A stretch of DNA of 64,000 nucleotides from Spirochaetaceae bacterium. GTDB taxonomy: Bacteria > Spirochaetota > Spirochaetia > DSM-2461. The stretch is taken from positions 352,001 through 416,000 of the forward strand of contig OZ245056.1 of the NCBI GenBank assembly GCA_965224705.1. Direction: 5' to 3'. The notes beneath the pieces were generated by a model that saw only the letters and a list, made by a program, of their open reading frames with translations, had not been told where the DNA came from and searched no databases. Shown piece by piece: positions 958-56,491 of the stretch. The stretch's first letter is position 1. Every line of letters starts with the position of its first letter. Position numbers and translations under genes: made by a program.

Positions 958-2684
<1,727 letters not shown>

Positions 2685-2702
<18 letters not shown>

Positions 2703-3203
2703 CGGGTAAGGATTAAACAAACACTTGTTCGGGTCCGAACAGGTCATTTTTTTGAAATGGTTTTGTCTATGGACTTCATAGGCTGCAATTCCAACACTAA
2801 CAGCCAGGTTTAAAGACCGTGCTTGAGATAACATGGGTATGCGCAGACATCGTTCAGGCTGTGAAAGCAGCAGTTCATGGGGCAATCCAGCCGTTTCTTT
2901 ACCGAAAACCAGAAATGCTTCTATTTCATATTGAGCTTTATCCACTCGCTTTCCTGCCTTTGTTGTAAAAAACCACAATGGGGCATTCGGGTAAGCCTTG
3001 CGAAAATCAAGCCAGCTGGAATGGCATTCCACTGCAAGTTTCTTCCAGTAATCCAATCCCGATCTTCTCAGATATTTATCCTCAAGTGAGAACCCCAGGG
3101 GCTCAATAAGGTGTAGTTTGGCGTTCAATGCCAGACAGGTTCTCCCTATGCTTCCGGTATTCTGGGGGATTTCCGGCTCGTACAGTACTATATGAAGTTC
3201 CAT
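2685..3203 (-). CDS. trmL: tRNA (cytidine/uridine-34 2'-O)-methyltransferase TrmL (SPOUT)
   Basis: IVLYEPEIPQNTGSIGRTC, RRSGLDYW, FGKETAGLP, RSLNLAVSV. The stop codon lies in the element right end. Confidence 0.95.
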
Positions 3204-9676: not shown

Positions 9677-11506
9677 ATGACCGGAAGATCATACATTTTG
9701 ATTCACACAGCACTCCTTGCGGAGGCCCGACCCATCATACGATATTTCGGACTCCACCAATCCGAAACAAAACCATTCAGGCTGTTTTGCAACGAACAGA
9801 TACTGCTTATCGTTTCCGGTGTTGGCAAAGAATCCACCCGGAAGGCATTGAAATGGATTACTGATCGATTTCAATTATCTTCAGCGATTAACATCGGTAT
9901 GGCGGGATGCAATGATACAGACATGAAAATCGGCACTTTCTTCGCAGTACAGGGTGGTCCGGATACAGCACTCCGTCTCCCACTGCATACAAGCAGCATC
10001 CCCCTGAAAATCAATGAATGCGAGTTCCCCGAATCCACTCTGGTCGATATGGAAGCTTCTCACTTCATCTCTTCACTTACCCATGTTCTCGATACCAGCA
10101 GTATTCACATCCTCAAGGTTCTTTCTGACTATTTGAGTGATACCATTCCCAATAGAGCTTTTATTGACAGTCTCATTGAGAATACGCTTCCTCAATGGAC
10201 GTCTCTTGTTGACCCTTATCCGGAGAAAATCAGCCAGGTATTCAGTGAGCCTCCTTCACAGAATCTTCTCCCTGACGATAAAGAGGCCATACGAAATGCG
10301 GCCCTGGCCTTCCGATTCAGTTACCAGGAAATAAAAACTCTTGTAACCATGGCTCTCGACTTCGTCTCCTGGGATGAGGAGCCTATTTCCCAGCGGTTCA
10401 GGAGAAAATTCCAGTCCCGTAAAAACGCCTGGAATGCTATTCGAAGTGAATGGGAAAATTCTGTGAATCAAACAAAGACATATGAAGGGTTTATAGGTGA
10501 AAGTCCTCGAAAAAACACGGGAGCGAAGGAAATCATTGAGATTGACCGCCCAGGTCCAGGATTCGGTCTCTGTCCGGTGGCATCACAAAGAACCCGATGC
10601 TGCAATCTTCGTACTCTGGATGCCATTGAAGGCTGCGGATTTGACTGCAGCTACTGCTCCATCCGCCATTTCTACAACAGCGAGCAAGTTGGTTTCAACC
10701 GGGATTTCCTGGACAAGCTCAAAGCCATTGAACTCAATCCAGAAAAAGTCTACCACATCGGAACAGGGCAATCCTCAGATTCCCTTATGTGGGGAAATCG
10801 TGCCGGTATACTGGACGGGTTGTTGGATTTTGCCGGAGAGAATCCCAACGTTATTCTAGAGTTCAAAACCAAATCGGACAATGTTTCCCACCTTCTTCAC
10901 CGTAAGGTTCCAGCCAATGTTATCACGACATGGTCACTGAATCCCCAGATTATCATCGACAATGAAGAGCACTTCACGGCATCTCTGGAGCGGCGAATTC
11001 AATCGGCCAGGCAATTGACCGCCCAGGGAAATCTTGTTGGTTTTCACTTCCACCCTTTGGTCCATTATGATGGATGGGAGACAGATTACGAAGAAGTAAT
11101 CAGATCTCTGTTGAGCCAGTTTGATCCAGCCGATGTCGTGATGATTTCTCTTGGAACTCTCACCTTCACCAGGCCAGTATTAAAGAAGATGAGGAAGCAT
11201 CCCATGAGGAGCCGTATTCTTCAAATGCCGCTTGAAGAGACTGGAGGAAAATTCTCCTATCCGCTTGCAATCAAACAGAAGATGTTTCGCCATACCTATG
11301 AATGCTTTATTCCCTGGCATGAAAAGGTGTTTTTTTATCTCTGCATGGAACACCCTTCCCTATGGCCCGATGTGTTCGGGTATGACTATGACGACAATGA
11401 GGGATTTGAAACAGCGATGATCGACTCCTACATGAAAAAAATTCTCAGTGTCAGAAAGCCTGTAAAACCCTCTTCAACCCATTCCAGAAATCCAACTCCC
11501 TCCTGA
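9677..11506 (+). CDS. Fusion of an MTA/SAH-nucleosidase-like (PNP_UDP_1 fold) domain and a spore photoproduct lyase-like radical SAM domain
   Basis: N-terminal SGVGK, INIGMAG, VDMEA, KVLSD; C-terminal CGFDCSYC (CxxxCxxC), GTGQSSDSL, LEFKTKS, WSLNP, FHFHP, YLCME. Confidence 0.82.
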   Translation: MTGRSYILIHTALLAEARPIIRYFGLHQSETKPFRLFCNEQILLIVSGVGKESTRKALKWITDRFQLSSAINIGMAGCNDTDMKIGTFFAVQGGPDTALRLPLHTSSIPLKINECEFPESTLVDMEASHFISSLTHVLDTSSIHILKVLSDYLSDTIPNRAFIDSLIENTLPQWTSLVDPYPEKISQVFSEPPSQNLLPDDKEAIRNAALAFRFSYQEIKTLVTMALDFVSWDEEPISQRFRRKFQSRKNAWNAIRSEWENSVNQTKTYEGFIGESPRKNTGAKEIIEIDRPGPGFGLCPVASQRTRCCNLRTLDAIEGCGFDCSYCSIRHFYNSEQVGFNRDFLDKLKAIELNPEKVYHIGTGQSSDSLMWGNRAGILDGLLDFAGENPNVILEFKTKSDNVSHLLHRKVPANVITTWSLNPQIIIDNEEHFTASLERRIQSARQLTAQGNLVGFHFHPLVHYDGWETDYEEVIRSLLSQFDPADVVMISLGTLTFTRPVLKKMRKHPMRSRILQMPLEETGGKFSYPLAIKQKMFRHTYECFIPWHEKVFFYLCMEHPSLWPDVFGYDYDDNEGFETAMIDSYMKKILSVRKPVKPSSTHSRNPTPS

Positions 11507-11630
11507 ACCCTCACATACAACGGAACATTACGACTGGATTTCTCCGAATTACACCATTCGCACATCCAGGTTTTCAGCTCTTCTTCACTCAGATTGACCT
11601 TGCTAAAACAACCCGTTTCAGCCAACACCT
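11448..11630 (-). mobile_element. Diverged 3' fragment of a family A IS (right end plus transposase C-terminus)
   Basis: Minus strand reads FSKVNLSEEELKTWMCEW...PLYVRV versus LSKVNLGAAEKKTWLCEW...PLYVKV in the intact transposase; TIR at 11448. Confidence 0.9.
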
Positions 11631-18978: not shown

Positions 18979-19168
18979 ATATTTAAATCGTTTCAGTGTA
19001 TATATATCATGCATAACAGGATTATACCTGCTGGCGTTCTGCGGAGGCAATGCGCAAAACGCACATTGTTGGCAGGAGGTATTGACACAACTTTTCAGAG
19101 TATACAATGAATAGATTTTTCATTGAGTTGGAGGACGATCTGATCTGTAAAGATTTGAACTTTATGCA

Positions 19169-19214
19169 GTGTCAGGAAGCTTAACCTGGTTTCATTTAAC
19201 AGGCTTCCTGACAC
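19169..19214. mobile_element. Minimal (46 bp) family A element
   Basis: GTGTCAGGAAGCTT-AACCTGGTTTCATT-TAACAGGCTTCCTGACAC; the core matches the sub-terminal sequence of the 220-bp subtype. Confidence 0.85.
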
Positions 19215-19344
19215 TACATGAGCTTTACACAGAAAACTTCACAGGCTCATTCCGCATACTTTGAAACACGACTTGAAACATTACCCCTGATTCTTCCACC
19301 AGATCAGTGATCTTTGATGAATTACACGCTGGATGAATTTAAAC

Positions 19345-25795: not shown

Positions 25796-26440
25796 AGGGC
25801 TTGCTGAAAAAGTCTTTCAAGCAGCCTTCTCGCTGATTTTGTATCTGTTGTTGATTTCATGGATTTTCTCATCACAGATTTTGTCAGGGTTCAGCACAAT
25901 GACTGAAAGATGTATTTCACACTCCCTTGTTTCTTTCAATTTGGCTTTTATCAATCTCATTCCATACTTTCGTTTTGCCGCCCCGAATTGCCCTCAATGG
26001 CGATCCGGGTGACTTCATCCTGATAGCGAACACTGACTTCTTTCTTGAGTTCCTGTTGATTCTCATCTGCTCATTTTTTCGGATGGCTCAGCGGTTTTCG
26101 TAGTGTCAGAAGGCTTTCCGGTAATCCAGATGTCCACACGATTCTGGCAGCCTTATCAGCATGAACGGAAGCCGGATAACAGTCATAACGGTGTCTGTAT
26201 TTTTTTATCTGAGCATTCAAATCTGCTGACTCATAGTACGCATCCCAGCCGAGGCGATTGATGTAACTGAAGTCGCCTCTCAGGCTCCGTGATACCCTGG
26301 ATTTGTGTTTCCCATGCGATACATGATTCCTCCCTGGTGCAAGGGTTTTTGAGATTGCAATTTTTTCCTTGCACCTGAGGAGATTTAAACACACTTAAGT
26401 CTTTCGGAAGCAGAATCTTAGTTTTTGTTCAGCAAGTCCT
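25796..26440 (-). mobile_element. Degenerate, internally deleted IS5-family element
   Basis: TIRs AGGGCTTGCTGAA/TTCAGCAAGTCCT. Frameshifted transposase remnants INRLGWDAYYESADL...YPASVHADK and DEVTRIAIEG...AKRKYG...KAKLKET. Confidence 0.8.
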
Positions 26441-29645: not shown

Positions 29646-29722
29646 GCCAAGGCGAGTGAAAAAGTATCCTTATCATTCAGTGGTGGTTTATCATGCATGC
29701 TATTGAATGTGAACTGAACTGA

Positions 29723-29945
29723 GTGTCGGAAAGCTTGTTGTAACCTGGCTTCATTAGAATCCCGCCAGACGTAGATCCTTGGAGTCTGGTGTAGTCGTTT
29801 GATGCTAATTGATGGTTGTAATTCGGCGAAGCACTCGTTAAAACGACGAGAAGCCTTGTCGGCAAATAACATCGTAATTACTTATTATATAAGATATTAA
29901 TTCTCTAGCGAAAGCAATCGATTTGTTTAACAAGCTTCCTGACAC
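29723..29945. mobile_element. Family A MITE, ~220-bp subtype
   Basis: GTGTCGGAAAGCTTGTT...AACAAGCTTCCTGACAC; interior alignable to the 38822, 44520 and 56218 copies. Confidence 0.9.
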
Positions 29946-29989
29946 TACATAAGATGAAACGGGGACAGCCGTAGTTTGTCGAATCTGGG

Positions 29990-30870: not shown

Positions 30871-30954
30871 TGCAGCAGAGAGGACTTGAACCTCCACGGC
30901 ATTGCTGCCACTAGCCCCTCAAGCTAGCGTGTCTACCAATTCCACCACTGCTGC
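30871..30954 (-). tRNA. tRNA-Leu (anticodon GAG)
   Basis: Minus strand GCAGCAG...GGAATTGGTAGACAC-GCTAGC-TTGAGGG-GCTAG, long variable arm, GGAGG-TTCAAGT-CCTCT, CTGCTGC-A. Confidence 0.95.
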
Positions 30955-37343: not shown

Positions 37344-37388
37344 TCCTTACTTGTACTCTATTTTTTCTGAAAATTTAAGAAGTATTCA

Positions 37389-38642
37389 GTGTCAGAAAGC
37401 TTGTTAATGCAGCAAAAAACCCTGTCAGGCTCGTTATAACATAGTAAGAAAACAATTTATAAAGGAGTTTGACCATGCCATTCCCCCACTGCCCCAACCC
37501 GAAATGTATCCATTTCAGTGCCCCGAAGCAAAAAAACTGGTTTTCGATACATAGTTCCTACCACACAGAAGCATTTGGAACAGTCCAGCGCTACATCTGC
37601 AATGACTGCAAAAGAACCTTTTCCGCCCAGACTTTTTCAATCGATTACTATGCGAAAAAAGTCATCGACTACGAGGAACTTCTACAGCAGCTGGTGACCT
37701 CTTCCGGTGTGAATGACATCAGCCGTCACCTGGAGGTTTCTTCCGATACGATACAGAACCGATGCGAAAGATTGGCCCGTTCCGCCATGGCAATCCATGC
37801 CCGGCTGTTGAAAAAACTCCCCATGAGGGAATCCATGGCCGCAGATGGACTGGAGTCCTTTTCCTTCTCTCAATACTATCCCAACCACATCAACATCTTT
37901 GCCGGGAGTGAGTCCGAGTTCATCTATGAGACCGGGTTTGCCAATCTCAGGCGGAAAGGAAGAATGACTTCCCGTCAGAAATTGATCCGAAAAAAGCTGG
38001 AGGCCAGGGGCAGGGCGGATCCCGGGGCCATTGAGAAATCGGTGAGAAGTCTGACAGAAGATTTGATTCAATTTCTTATGAAGAAAAAGGTTGTGCATAA
38101 GCTGCTCTTCACGGATATGCACAGGGCATACACCCGGGCCTTTGCGAAAACCGAGCATTTTCTCCACTTCTTCATCCGGATCATGACATCTTCAAGGTTG
38201 GCCAGAACCATGGATAATCCGATGTTTCCTATTAACTACATTGACCGTCAGATCAGGAAAGATATTTCAGACCATGTCAGGGAGACGGTCAAGTTTGCCA
38301 AATCTCCCGCTGCGATGATGATACGATTTGTTCTTTATCGTCACTACCACAACTGCATGATTCCATGGCGGGTGAAGGAGGCCCGGAAGAAGAAGGACAC
38401 AACTCATGCTGAGAAGGCCGGGATCACCAGGAAGAAACTTCGCAAGGCAGTAGGCAGGTACTGGTTGAAGAGAGCCTTTTTGAGCAAGGTCAATCTGGGT
38501 GCGGCAGAGAAGAAGACCTGGTTGTGTGAGTGGCGTAATCCGGGAGTGGAATCCGGTCGTTATGATCCGCTGTATGTGAAGGTTTAGGATGGGATTGGAC
38601 TCCCGGGATGGGTTGAAGGAGGTTTTACAGGCTTTCTGACAC
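37389..38642 (+). mobile_element. Intact family A insertion sequence (1254 bp)
   Basis: TIRs GTGTCAGAAAGCTTGTTAA / TTTACAGGCTTTCTGACAC enclosing one ORF; partial copies at 2281 and 11448. Confidence 0.92.
37475..38587 (+). CDS. Transposase, IS1/IS1595-like (zinc ribbon, HTH, DDE-like core), single ORF
   Basis: CPNPKC...QRYICNDCKRTFS; HTH VNDISRHLEVSSDTI; AADGLES; FTDMHRAY; INYIDRQIR...RETVKFAKS; AAGGAG RBS. Confidence 0.8.
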   Translation: MPFPHCPNPKCIHFSAPKQKNWFSIHSSYHTEAFGTVQRYICNDCKRTFSAQTFSIDYYAKKVIDYEELLQQLVTSSGVNDISRHLEVSSDTIQNRCERLARSAMAIHARLLKKLPMRESMAADGLESFSFSQYYPNHINIFAGSESEFIYETGFANLRRKGRMTSRQKLIRKKLEARGRADPGAIEKSVRSLTEDLIQFLMKKKVVHKLLFTDMHRAYTRAFAKTEHFLHFFIRIMTSSRLARTMDNPMFPINYIDRQIRKDISDHVRETVKFAKSPAAMMIRFVLYRHYHNCMIPWRVKEARKKKDTTHAEKAGITRKKLRKAVGRYWLKRAFLSKVNLGAAEKKTWLCEWRNPGVESGRYDPLYVKV

Positions 38643-38821
38643 TGGGTATGTGCCTAAAAAGCCCATATAAAGATGGAAGCCGAAGTAGAGATTCACGCCC
38701 TGTATCTGCAATGCTCAAACGAACCGGTTTTCCCGAGCAGTGTTAAACAGGTGTTCAAAACTACGGGATCGTTCAGCCAGGGAAACAGCACAGAGCCCTG
38801 CCTCCAAGAAAGCAATATATA

Positions 38822-39039
38822 GTGTCAGGAAGCCTGTTAAAGGAAAGAATCGTTTCTTCAAAAAAATTAATATCCTATGAAACTGTAATTACAAAATATC
38901 TTGCCGGCGAACTGCTCATCATTCCAGATGAGTAGTTCGCCGATTCATAACTATCATGTGTATTGAACGACTATATCGGGCAAAGATCTTCATCTAATCG
39001 GATTTAAATGAAACCAGGGTATAACAAGCTTTCTGACAC
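38822..39039. mobile_element. Family A MITE, ~220-bp subtype (reverse orientation)
   Basis: Both TIRs present; internal 16-bp hairpin at 38905-38942. Confidence 0.9.
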
Positions 39040-39522
39040 TGTAAAAGCAATACGGCCGTCCCTTTGCCAATGGACGCTCTGTGAGGGAGTTCACCATTAT
39101 CCACCCGGCGGATTTCTCTGGGAATCAGATTGGAGAGAATTAAACCCGGTAAGCCTTGCAAAATGGCGGCTACGAGAGAATACACCAGGATCTGTAAGCT
39201 GACGAAGAACCTCACAAGCTCCTGTACTGAAATCCAGAAGGCTCTGTGGAGTTCTGGCGGGTTGAGTTCAACACAACCAGGCCGCACAAAAGCTGGCTAT
39301 GAAAACTCCGTGTGTACCGGAAGTCCGAAAGAGTGCAGTCTCTGAGCCGGTAAAAGGGATATCCGTTGTTCTCCAGAACACTGAAAATTTCCAGACACAG
39401 CTGTTTGAAACTGGATCGGCAGAAGAGTGACATCCACAGTGCCCTGCCCGGGTATACAGCAGGAATCAAGGATCTTACCGCCATGCAAAAAATCGATAGA
39501 CCGGCGATTAAGGCTGTAAAAA

Positions 39523-40466: not shown

Positions 40467-40754
40467 CCTAAACGATAAGAATATGTGTCGCAAGAATGGC
40501 AAAGGAAATGAATACAACTAAGAATCTCATGAGTATCATGACCCTATTGTCGACTCAACTGAAAATTTACCGAATACCTTTTCGAACTTTGCCACAATTT
40601 TGCCCGGATTGACCTCATACTCCCGATAGTATCAGAAGGAATGTGGTCCCCCCACCTGTGACTGCAATTCTCAACCTGAATCAAACAAATTTCATCACCG
40701 ACTTAGTCCAGTTTCAAGGAGTTAAATATGACCTCTTCCATTGCACCAGCCAAG

Positions 40755-40914
40755 GAGTCTGTCGGACTTACGTCTCACGGCTCGATTTTTGCCCTTCTCT
40801 CCTCCTGCTGCGTTGCCAAAATACTCACGCAGCCCAGTTGCGCTCCGTTTTGTCGCCTTGCATCAGGAGAAAATCATCAAAAATCGCCTTGAAGTCTCAA
40901 AGTCCGACAGGCTC
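40755..40914. mobile_element. Family B MITE
   Basis: Both TIRs; flanks CAAG/CCAG. Confidence 0.92.
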
Positions 40915-41216
40915 CCAGAATGCGGAGAGTTCAATGCCTTCAGGGGAAAAATGGTTTTATCCTCATGGAAGTACAAACAAGAGTCCTGTCGATGACGGAC
41001 TGGCATCTGTAGTCAGAACTGATTCTGAAACAATGGAGTCTTCAATGATAAGTTTGTCAGTGTCTCTTGTTCATTTGTTGAAAGCTGAACATGTTTCGGG
41101 CAGAAAACTGACCACGACATGGTTACCCAACATATAAAAGAGTACCATGAAGAGTCATGTGAGTTTTCATGAGGGAATTCCTGCCCGGTCATGCATTCGG
41201 TAGATGACGGGATCAC

Positions 41217-44500: not shown

Positions 44501-44519
44501 CGCACATAAGCATTATGCA

Positions 44520-44739
44520 GTGTCAGGAAGCTTGTTATAGCCTGGTTTCATTAAAATCCGGTTAGATGAGGATCCCTGCCAATATAGTAATTCAATACTC
44601 ATTGATAGTTGTGATTCAGCGAATTACTTATTTTGAATGATAGGAAGTCTCACCGGCAAGATGTTTCGTAAGTATTGTTCCACGATATATTAATTCTTTT
44701 GATGAAAGCAATTGTTTCATCCAACAGGCTTCCTGACAC
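44520..44739. mobile_element. Family A MITE, ~220-bp subtype
   Basis: Both TIRs; flanks TGCA/TGCA; between convergent genes. Confidence 0.9.
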
Positions 44740-44749
44740 TGCAAATGAG

Positions 44750-47445: not shown

Positions 47446-47607
47446 GAACCTATCGGACTTTAAGGCTTCAAGGCGATTTTTGATGATTTTTTCCTGATGC
47501 AAGGCGACAAAAACTCAAGCGTAGCTGGGCTCCGTAGTATTTTGACAACTCAGCAGCGGGGGAAAAAGGGCAAAAATCGAGCCGTAAGGCGTAAGTCCGG
47601 CAGGCTC
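47446..47607. mobile_element. Family B MITE (diverged TIRs) just upstream of ade
   Basis: GAACCTATCGGACTT...AAGTCCGGCAGGCTC; interior matches the other copies. Confidence 0.9.
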
Positions 47608-47775
47608 CTTGTGAATCTCCATGCTGATACTACCACACACAATGTTTCTGTCATACAAAGGAACCTCTGTAAGACAAATTCAGAAAACTACGAAGAGATT
47701 TTCACCTGTCCACGTACAGCACACGGGCAGCAAAGCAGAACGGAGTTAAGTTGAGTAAATATTTTATGAATTCAA

Positions 47776-47886
47776 GTGTCAGTAAGCTTGTTAAATCAGA
47801 AAAATACTTCTTTAATACGGCTGTTTTGATGGCTTAGAACCTTGCAGCTACTAGAAAAAGTGAGAATTCAACAAGCTTGCTGACAC
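47776..47886. mobile_element. Family A MITE, 111-bp subtype
   Basis: Both TIRs; interior similar to the 51397 copy. Confidence 0.88.
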
Positions 47887-47964
47887 TTGGTAAGGAATTA
47901 CAGCAATGACTTCACACTCTTCTTTCAGTATCAAACAACGTCCGGGCATTGATACTCCTGTTTA

Positions 47965-51198: not shown

Positions 51199-51396
51199 GT
51201 GAACACACCTTACTAGCAGTCAGCTTCATCGTCAAGTTTCCAGAAAGTCTGTATGAGATTCATCGTGACAGAGAGACAGAGGGTCTGCCCGAAGGCGTTC
51301 TCCAGGATCTCCGCTTCCCTGTACTCCGTCAGTAGTATTGATCGGAAAATCAGGGAAGATAACTTTGATCATGTACGAAAATGTGAAGTTTTCGAA

Positions 51397-51507
51397 GTGT
51401 CAGGAAGCTTGTTAAACCGAAAAAATACCTCTTCAGTATAACTCTGTCGATGGCTTAAAACCTTGTAATAATTGGGGATAATGAAAATTTAACAAGCTTA
51501 CTGACAC
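51397..51507. mobile_element. Family A MITE, 111-bp subtype
   Basis: Both TIRs; same length and similar interior as the 47776 copy. Confidence 0.88.
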
Positions 51508-51666
51508 TACGTGAATTCCCAAGCTTAATGATGATTCACACAGCTCTTTACCGTTATCGACCAGTTATTTGAATACCCGGCGGGTTGAGAAGAGACGAAA
51601 AAGTAACAAGAATACGCAAAGAAAGGTTTTGTCAGGACACAGAGGGCTACTTTGATTTTTCAGTGC

Positions 51667-56028: not shown

Positions 56029-56217
56029 ACAAATCGCTGGAATAGAAATCAATCCCGCCTGAAACAAGTCAAAGGACCCGCCTCCTTGAATGGCCCGGAA
56101 ACTCAGGGCGGCCTCATAATACTTTCCGGAGTTCAATCCATAAGTATCCACAAACCATTGGGAAAAGTATGTTTTCACTGCATGCCGTCGATGGTTTATT
56201 GAGAACTCCATATTGCA

Positions 56218-56440
56218 GTGTCAGAAAGCTTGGCTTGTTAGATGCAGCAATCGATTCCATCAGAAACTAATATATTATAGGGAAACAATGTACAATACAT
56301 ATTACCGAGAAAGTTCCTCATCGCCCAGGAGAGCATCCGCCGAATTACAACTGTCAATCAGTAATAAACAACTATATCAGGCAAAAGTTTCCACCCGGCT
56401 CAATTAAAATGAGCCCAGGGTATAACAAGCTTCCTGACAC
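56218..56440. mobile_element. Family A MITE, ~220-bp subtype (reverse orientation, diverged)
   Basis: GTGTCAGAAAGCTT...CCAGGGTATAACAAGCTTCCTGACAC. Confidence 0.87.
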
Positions 56441-56491
56441 AACTCTGGTCAGGGTACAACAGGTTTTTGACACAGACTGCTGACAGGACCT

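Follow-up and report, generated by a model that had tools for sequence, protein, structure and literature searches.

An intact IS1-related insertion sequence from a spirochaete, with variable tips, a 9-bp target duplication and a conserved Asn-x-x-Asp helix in its transposase

The stretch of DNA analysed here (hereafter the window) comprises 64,000 nucleotides from the genome of a Spirochaetaceae bacterium (G000; 3.0 Mb, one contig). It contains a full insertion sequence (IS) of 1262 bp on the plus strand (37385..38646), whose limits are set by a 9-bp duplication at offset 4 from the conserved end motif and by two empty sites, both described below. The element is 8 bp longer than first annotated (37389..38642), reaching 4 bp further on each side. 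Its inverted repeats each combine a variable tip with a conserved core: TTCA (37385-37388) and GTGTCAGAAAGCTTGT at the left end (37385..37404, plus strand), and CCCA (inward reading) and GTGTCAGAAAGCCTGT at the right end (38627..38646, minus strand). This division follows from the sequence and the per-position diversity and, at the left end, from frequencies over 193 ends. A 12-mer within the core, GTGTCAGAAAGC, occurs at 37389 and at 38631-38642 and has 21 matches with at most one mismatch in the window, against 0.26 expected; across G000 there are 211 such matches and 66 end pairs, of which 62 are shorter than 1.3 kb. The transposase ORF (37475..38587, plus strand; 370 aa, ATG at 37475 to the stop at 38587) is preceded by a likely ribosome-binding site, AGGAG, 7 nt 5' of the ATG (37463..37467, plus strand; its function is presumed from the sequence), while a promoter scan gave chance-level matches only. 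G000 holds seven full copies, all with the ORF intact (7/7), which are 95.9–98.0% identical in pairwise comparisons with no two identical.

The features listed for this protein in the preliminary description, namely a single intact ORF with zinc-type cysteines, a helix-turn-helix-like region and the motifs ADGLE (D124), TDMHRAY (D214) and INYIDRQIR...RETVKFAKS, are all present. The predicted zinc-binding region (37490..37609, plus strand; C6, C11, C42 and C45) shows a sub-threshold match to NF050000 (IS1/IS1595 Zn domain), and each Cys is kept in 200–206 of 214 homologues of 300–450 aa, the set over which residue conservation was counted. A predicted helix-turn-helix region follows (residues 66-114; 37670..37816, plus strand), with model helices at 66-74, 79-86 and 90-114 and weak HTH matches. 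PMC12428005 gives an N-terminal zinc finger and HTH for IS1 transposases, and the four conserved Cys and the model helices correspond to these. D124 (37844..37846, plus strand; 210/214) aligns with the first Asp of IS1-like proteins and D214 (38114..38116, plus strand; 211/214) with their TD motif, making them the likely first and second catalytic Asp. Residues 158-182 (37946-38020) form a highly conserved basic segment after the third strand (R159, R160, K161, G162, M164, Q168, R172), for which IS1-like proteins have no counterpart; as a candidate DNA-binding element, it could set the cut spacing or the target choice.

Homologues are numerous, with 969 clusters (50% identity) at E ≤ 0.001 and 572 at E ≤ 1e-10, and named relatives belong mostly to Spirochaetota; in a profile search, 5 of the 301 Spirochaetota genomes carried the family. 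The phage collection gave no match and the plasmid collection one weak N-terminal match. An HMM library search, a check suggested in the preliminary description, reached none of the Pfam and NCBIfam cut-offs, the weak matches being N-terminal. The IS1 model NF033558 scored 32.9 bits against a cut-off of 100, over the N-terminal part only; 71 of 85 homologues match it at E ≤ 0.01, the query itself only over residues 37-105. PF03400 had no match in G000, IS630 models were matched by 0/85 homologues, NF033547 (IS1595) weakly by 1/85 and PF13610 by 2/85 at E 0.006. No IS6 member exceeded the cut-off in 151 genomes, so that no set was available for profile comparison.

In the Atlas, 30 unnamed clusters ranked first and the nearest named cluster was PF03400 (IS1; 79% of members, score 0.93). 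The family profile is matched at 97.7–98.7% by a long single-ORF IS1-like protein (L223) and 18 relatives. When the catalytic domain alone (residues 112-322) was compared, the IS1-like set matched at 92%, IS1595 at 7% (13 sequences), IS256 at 1.2% (22 sequences) and IS630 at 0.2% (12 sequences). The IS1-like set in turn matches E. coli InsB at 94.6%, whereas the family profile against InsB alone reaches a non-significant 0.3%; as judged from these profiles, the link to InsB is transitive, via the IS1-like set. A longer-length InsB search returned only five fusions. A PDB sequence search gave nothing below E 0.28. The structure prediction that had also been suggested shows an RNase H/integrase-type fold (pLDDT 92.7), with DDE transposases and integrases as top matches. 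The first of these, ISCth4 of the IS256 family (PDB 6xg8), has Z 12.2 and an rmsd of 7.6 over 251 residues at 8% identity. Because HIV-1 and MMTV integrases score within 2 Z units of it (Z ~10.5), the match to this predicted model would indicate a common fold only. On sequence grounds, we regard 37385-38646 as an intact IS of an uncurated, IS1-related lineage.

N254-x-x-D257 (38234..38245, plus strand) lies in the third-residue helix, and D257 is the likely third metal ligand, as judged from homologue counts and the IS1-like register. Among the 214 homologues, N254 is kept in 208, D257 in 200 and R261 in 211; the 254/257 pair is N/D in 198, N/E in 6, N/H in 3 and otherwise in 7, so that alignment of homologues bears out the N-x-x-D arrangement family-wide. 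Other acids are less constant (E127 168, D263 176, E270 182), and helix 251-263 has no conserved acid besides D257. The preliminary description had held that homologues carrying the canonical Glu would count against its reading; six of 214 have a Glu at 257, none at 254.

Two registers with the IS1-like counterpart helix, S-Y-V-E-R-x-N-L-T-M-R, can be drawn. An ungapped register anchored on the shared R261, R269, T271, F274 (F-x-K) and N293 (YN) sets N254 against the IS1-like Glu and D257 against its Asn, whereas hhalign aligns Y-I-D-R-Q with Y-V-E-R-Q, pairing D257 with Glu at the cost of a three-residue gap. From the start of the helix to the Phe there are 23 residues here, against 24 in the comparison model, whose pLDDT is only 60–69 there; in these models the spacing leans to the ungapped register. 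We consider it somewhat likelier that N254 occupies the slot of the IS1 Glu and D257 that of the IS1 Asn. Since under both registers the helix offers no conserved acid other than D257, a DDD triad of D124, D214 and D257 is favoured, and these residues probably hold the metals. The third catalytic residue would then likely be an Asp that either replaces the usual Glu or lies one turn of the helix away from it.

An alternative would leave the element and its targeting as they are but make N254 the third ligand (a DDN site), with D257 auxiliary. N254 is indeed the more conserved of the two (208 against 200 of 214), and in the ungapped alignment it falls on the Glu. His replaces D257 in three homologues, and a simple pattern finds N-x-x-E in 3 of 13 IS1595-family proteins. 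Siguier is said to have reported DDN sites in IS1595 subgroups in 2009; subgroups of that family also have degenerate ends. The interchange of D and E at 257, however, points to a needed acid, and two-metal catalysis is poorly served by a neutral amide as its third ligand. We therefore regard a DDN site as unlikely and retain the triad ending in D257. Residue 235 is Arg in all seven G000 copies and in the fragments of the related genome G009 (window 38177-38179) but His in 195 of 214 homologues; judging from this replacement, activity may be reduced.

The preliminary description placed the ends of the element at the GTG of the core motif, saw no 8–9 bp duplication and proposed insertion into palindromic targets around a 2-bp core, with a 2-bp duplication or none, as in IS630-type elements. 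IS630 elements duplicate a 2-bp TA. We scanned the 62 paired G000 elements for duplications of 2 to 11 bp at offsets 0 to 6, using non-cognate flank pairs as the control. For 9 bp at offset 4, six of 62 matched at 8/9 or better, against 0.1 expected, and nine at 7/9 or better, against 0.9 expected; 50 of 62 scored 5/9 or less, i.e. most have no cognate duplication. In the window itself, a perfect 9-bp duplication flanks the miniature element (MITE) at 38818-39043 and an 8/9 one the remnant at 19165-19218, contrary to the statement that none is visible. Related genomes give the same picture. In one Spirochaetaceae genome, a 9-bp repeat 4 bases outside the GTG motif is perfect in 8 of 17 copies, 8/9 in one and 7/9 in one; perfect 9-bp duplications also flank 1 of 13 copies in a second genome and 2 of 6 in G086. 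A motif-free search of 159 family loci found 19 with a 9-bp repeat around an inverted repeat, the core beginning at position 5 in 18 of them, and the repeats share the consensus W-A-W-N-N-N-W-T-W.

Empty sites, the comparison by which the preliminary description had hoped to fix the duplication length, agree with 9 bp. G009, a relative ~91% identical to G000 over the IS region, yields 25 flank-pair matches for the 62 G000 elements, including two empty sites, most others being occupied or rearranged. At both empty sites (those of G000:35704 and G000:1975902) a single 9-mer is present and the outer 4-bp tips are absent, with the qualification that one requires 1 bp to have been lost from a repeat and the other adjoins a 6-bp indel. 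The IS family thus duplicates 9 bp of AT-rich target, as IS1 does. What looked like palindromic flanks is the outermost, variable 4 bp of the element's inverted repeats. The palindromic appearance was real in that left and right outer bases match over the 62 paired elements (95 matches against 63.5 expected), but the signal is mostly gone within families. No 2-bp duplication rises above chance at any offset from 0 to 6, and 4-bp matches at offset 0 (4 of 62 against 1.2 expected) are such as palindromic tips produce. The duplication scan and the empty sites, which lack the outer bases, rule out a 2-bp or zero duplication with a palindromic target. With the 9-bp duplication at offset 4 seen in at least five genomes and an IS630 profile match of 0.2%, the IS630-type model is refuted and keeps virtually no probability. 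Of the proposal of an unclassified IS group with a variant catalytic helix and new targeting, the uncurated but IS1-related status and the conserved Asn/Asp helix stand, while the targeting is 9-bp and IS1-like.

With the corrected boundaries, the family ends have TG at positions 6-7, as in IS1, whose ends are given as GGnnnTG with direct repeats of 8–9 in the tabulation of PMC10425158 (E. coli IS1A: GGTAATG and GGTGATG). A terminal GG is present at 63 of 88 ends in a sister clade from metagenomes, which also has N-x-x-D, against 3 of 82 in the mainly spirochaete clade (six of 91 loci with shifted registers left out); a quick tree separates the two clades with support of 96 and 91. Since IS1 has GG, the terminal GG is likely ancestral, by this analogy, and lost in the spirochaete clade. 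There, the tips vary widely. Among full copies, diversity at tip positions 1-3 reaches 0.86, and 3, 4 and 5 of 6 tip sites have π ≥ 0.35 in three genomes (13 of 18 at or near this value), against 7–13% of four-fold sites, the mean diversity at four-fold degenerate sites being 0.05–0.10 in the same genomes. Copies with perfect duplications carry differing tips; as perfect duplications mark young copies, several tip sequences can serve as substrates.

The simplest reading of these sequences is cleavage at a fixed distance from a bound core. The transposase would likely bind the conserved core of the inverted repeats and, whatever the tip sequence, likely cut 4 bases outside it, inserting with a 9-bp AT-rich duplication. 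As an overall explanation, we favour with fair confidence an intact, uncurated, IS1-related IS of 1262 bp that binds its core, cuts 4 bases out and duplicates 9 bp of AT-rich target. A different origin of the tip variation would be rewriting of the tips as the element transposes, with one end altered in each event, as a circle junction might allow. This would suit the excess of diversity at tip positions 1-3 over four-fold degenerate sites in three genomes, and in G086 (loci L415-L426) all six copies examined carry the consensus tip TTCA at exactly one end (~0.016 by chance, a pattern noticed post hoc). Yet old insertion and interior recombination explain the G000 diversity, tip identity with G009 is 0.65 against ~0.76 at neutral sites, and in G000 consensus tips at both ends co-occur rather than exclude each other. 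Inspection showed no match between variant tips and the bases adjoining the duplication, which rejects these bases as their source; left-right conversion was likewise rejected, within-element similarity of left and right tips being not above permutation in five of six family-level sets. The IS-derived set did show such similarity (p = 0.004), which shared retention of the consensus explains. Rewriting is, on this balance, quite improbable, and we keep to fixed-distance cleavage of tolerated tips. A bolder picture, which we hold only tentatively and which as a whole is probably too strong, is that of a widespread IS1-related family in which acid and amide have traded places within the catalytic helix, turning E-x-x-N into N-x-x-D and shifting the third carboxylate by one turn. 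In its spirochaete clade, the enzyme would no longer recognise bases at the cut site but measure four bases out from its binding site, perhaps rewriting one tip per jump.

The copy at 37385-38646 shows no duplication of its own. Its left 9-mer flank, TAAGAAGTA (37376..37384, plus strand), matches the present right flank (38647-38655) at only 3/9, so that its partner is not there. In G009 this left flank is followed by a 501-bp remnant whose 9-mers match at 6/9, and the right flank of that remnant lies, in G000, beside the element C1:2253086-2253901. These arrangements suggest that 37385-38646 and another copy have swapped flanks, through recombination or intramolecular transposition, which would be why the duplication is missing here. 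For a symbiont genome, PMC3196728 describes intact IS copies of which most are without direct repeats.

The end core is shared with many shorter elements, as the preliminary description noted, although its count of about ten in the window resolves, from the 21 12-mer matches, into eight shorter paired elements, two solo ends and one likely chance match. A 430-bp internal deletion derivative of the IS lies at 2277..2706 (plus strand) and a 54-bp remnant with both ends, the one with the 8/9 duplication, at 19165..19218. The remaining pairs are MITEs of two classes. Those of the 220 class lie at 29719..29949 (flank match 6/9), 44516..44743 (5/9), 56214..56444 (0/9) and, 170 bp downstream of the IS, at 38818..39043 (226 bp; perfect duplication AAAGCAATA at 38809-38817 and 39044-39052); those of the 111 class lie at 47772..47890 (3/9) and 51393..51511 (5/9). 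A solo right IS end with ~160 bp of decayed interior occupies 11444..11608 (plus strand; G000 363448-363608), and a solo end-like motif at 26099..26114 (plus strand), for which no partner was found, could be a remnant or a chance occurrence. With 2% of the genome, the window contains 21 of the 211 motif matches of G000, whose density lies between 0 and 17 per 100 kb. Another repeat family, unrelated to this one (~165–170 bp, many copies, very high contig depth), is present in the window at ~40753-40915, 47453-47610 and 30878-30948 and elsewhere at G000:C1:2371539-2371707; one of its copies interrupts an IS copy. At three other places (G000:C1 1399470, 2467469 and 2721391), elements have tRNA-like sequence (T-arm motif, by eye) only a few bases away.

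About 65 MITE-type repeats in G000 have the IS end core, the 111 class with a core-to-core distance of 110–111 bp (15 paired copies, 19 profile matches) and the 220 class with 217–221 bp (19 paired copies, 47 profile matches). Only positions 12 and 17 vary within their end core, whereas ~30% of interior sites differ; end positions 18-20, which played no part in the selection of ends on positions 5-16, are ~95% conserved. Neither class shows interior similarity to the IS, which rejects them as deletion derivatives of it, and their parent elements were not found. That the IS drives this MITE family, as had been proposed, is a fair inference for the past from the shared ends, but the MITEs are old, with interiors unlike the IS; nearest neighbours are at most 90% (111 class) and 93% (220 class) identical, and many of the sites are also occupied in G009. 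Since IS1 moves mini-elements in trans (PMC12903888), the MITEs were likely mobilised in the past by this enzyme or by a relative since lost, and it is by this analogy quite probable that the IS once mobilised in trans both its deletion derivatives and the 111- and 220-class MITEs. Transposition itself would, again as in IS1, be replicative or circle-based. Contigs of four of the nine sequencing runs contained no empty site or end-to-end joint among the matches listed and provide no evidence either way; no RNA data set was among the runs listed as containing the sequence.

A different transposase between the same ends was also considered. Four large end pairs (1.9–2.3 kb) were examined and none supports it: one is a 1973-bp element nested in a MITE, two are a MITE beside a solo end, and one spans host-like ORFs. 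The nested element (G000:C1:1603-3797) lies inside a 220-class MITE, carries a 589-aa ORF that we take to be IS1634-like from its motif, and has three near-full copies and one split copy elsewhere without these ends. A 344-aa transposase-like frame at G000:C1:136400-138000, presumably ISL3-like by its motifs, has a weak NF033558 match and is unrelated to this family.

Comparison with G009 also informs the age of the copies. A unique flank that can be mapped to G009 is available for 89 of the 193 G000 ends; a similar motif is present there for 44 of these (~8 by chance or offset) and absent for 45. Six of the seven full copies share at least one end site with G009, which has broken fragments only, and four G009 remnants are no closer to the same-site copy than to other copies. 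Incompatibility affects 668 of the 1128 informative site pairs among the G000 copies and is commoner at long distance; pN/pS among these copies is 0.12 (0.12–0.21 over three genomes). Because of the shared sites, the incompatible pairs and the low pN/pS, we conclude that the copies are mostly old, recombine with each other and were under purifying selection in the past. One could go further and see in them dead or domesticated relics kept alike by recombination, their end cores preserved as protein-binding sites and not for movement. The absence of identical copies (95.9–98.0%), the 44 of 89 ends with the motif at the same G009 place, the broken G009 fragments with none closer to its same-site copy and the replacement of a conserved His by R235 would all fit; the low pN/pS in three genomes, the 45 ends without a motif in G009 and the perfect duplications in this and related genomes do not, which leaves the relic reading very unlikely. 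It concerns present activity only, and the mechanism favoured above is the same under it. At L003 and L022, a full IS lies directly beside an older same-family end and shares its 9-mer, an arrangement which suggests that an earlier target duplication was re-used. At G000:C1 738561, 1848352 and 2229716, the same site in G000 and G009 carries ends of different element classes, tips following the interior class in two cases; this suggests replacement at old sites.

Set beside known systems, the element is closest to the IS1 family (E. coli IS1A InsA/InsAB'; NF033558, PF03400), with which it shares the zinc finger, HTH and RNase H-type catalytic domain, the 9-bp duplication, TG at end positions 6-7, the R..R.T..F.K spacing after the third-residue helix and, in the sister clade, GG tips. 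It differs in its single 370-aa ORF, its 1262 bp (the size range in PMC10425158 is 740–1180 bp), N-x-x-D in place of E-x-x-N, the absence of GG tips, the basic insertion 158-182 and scores below the curated cut-off. Because the Glu, the terminal GG, the size and the curated cut-offs all fail, we leave it outside the IS1 family despite its IS1-like architecture, duplication and end register. The long single-ORF IS1-like proteins (L223 and 18 viral-contig relatives; PF03400 at the cut-off) are its best profile match and have a similar YN..R.H...TPA..AG-like tail, but keep E-R-x-N and have no zinc region. A crude search around L223-L243, many of them on viral contigs, gave no clear inverted repeats; these proteins may have other ends or be domesticated. 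IS1595 (NF033547) resembles it in the N-terminal zinc/HTH region (95% match) and, in some members, in an Asn three residues before the acid, whereas the catalytic profile match is only 7% and the duplication here is 9 bp; for IS1595, PMC8101967 gives 8 bp and treats the DDE_Tnp_IS1595 catalytic domain as diagnostic. IS256 supplies the top structural match (ISCth4) but a catalytic profile match of 1.2%. IS630, with direct repeats of 2 in the tabulation of PMC10425158, differs in duplication and in catalytic profile (0.2%), and IS6, for which PMC7986276 gives GG tips and an 8-bp duplication, in tips and duplication length. As with other bacterial MITEs that have a cognate IS, the short non-coding elements here carry the IS end core and the same 9-bp duplication; unlike those, MITEs of the 111 and 220 classes have interiors dissimilar to this IS. 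Our literature search, which did not extend to ISfinder or the key IS papers, found no description of this transposase family.

DDE insertion sequences are defined and annotated by two features, their terminal bases and the third acid, and this family changes both while keeping IS1-type targeting. An annotator who sets the ends at the conserved motif will overlook the duplication and misfile the family, as happened in the preliminary description. It is a large family (572 clusters) for which the libraries searched hold no family model of its own, and in G000 it accounts for ~190 end motifs and for flank exchanges. Its GG-tipped sister clade offers a ready natural comparison of how the cleavage position is set and of how far an active site can shift.
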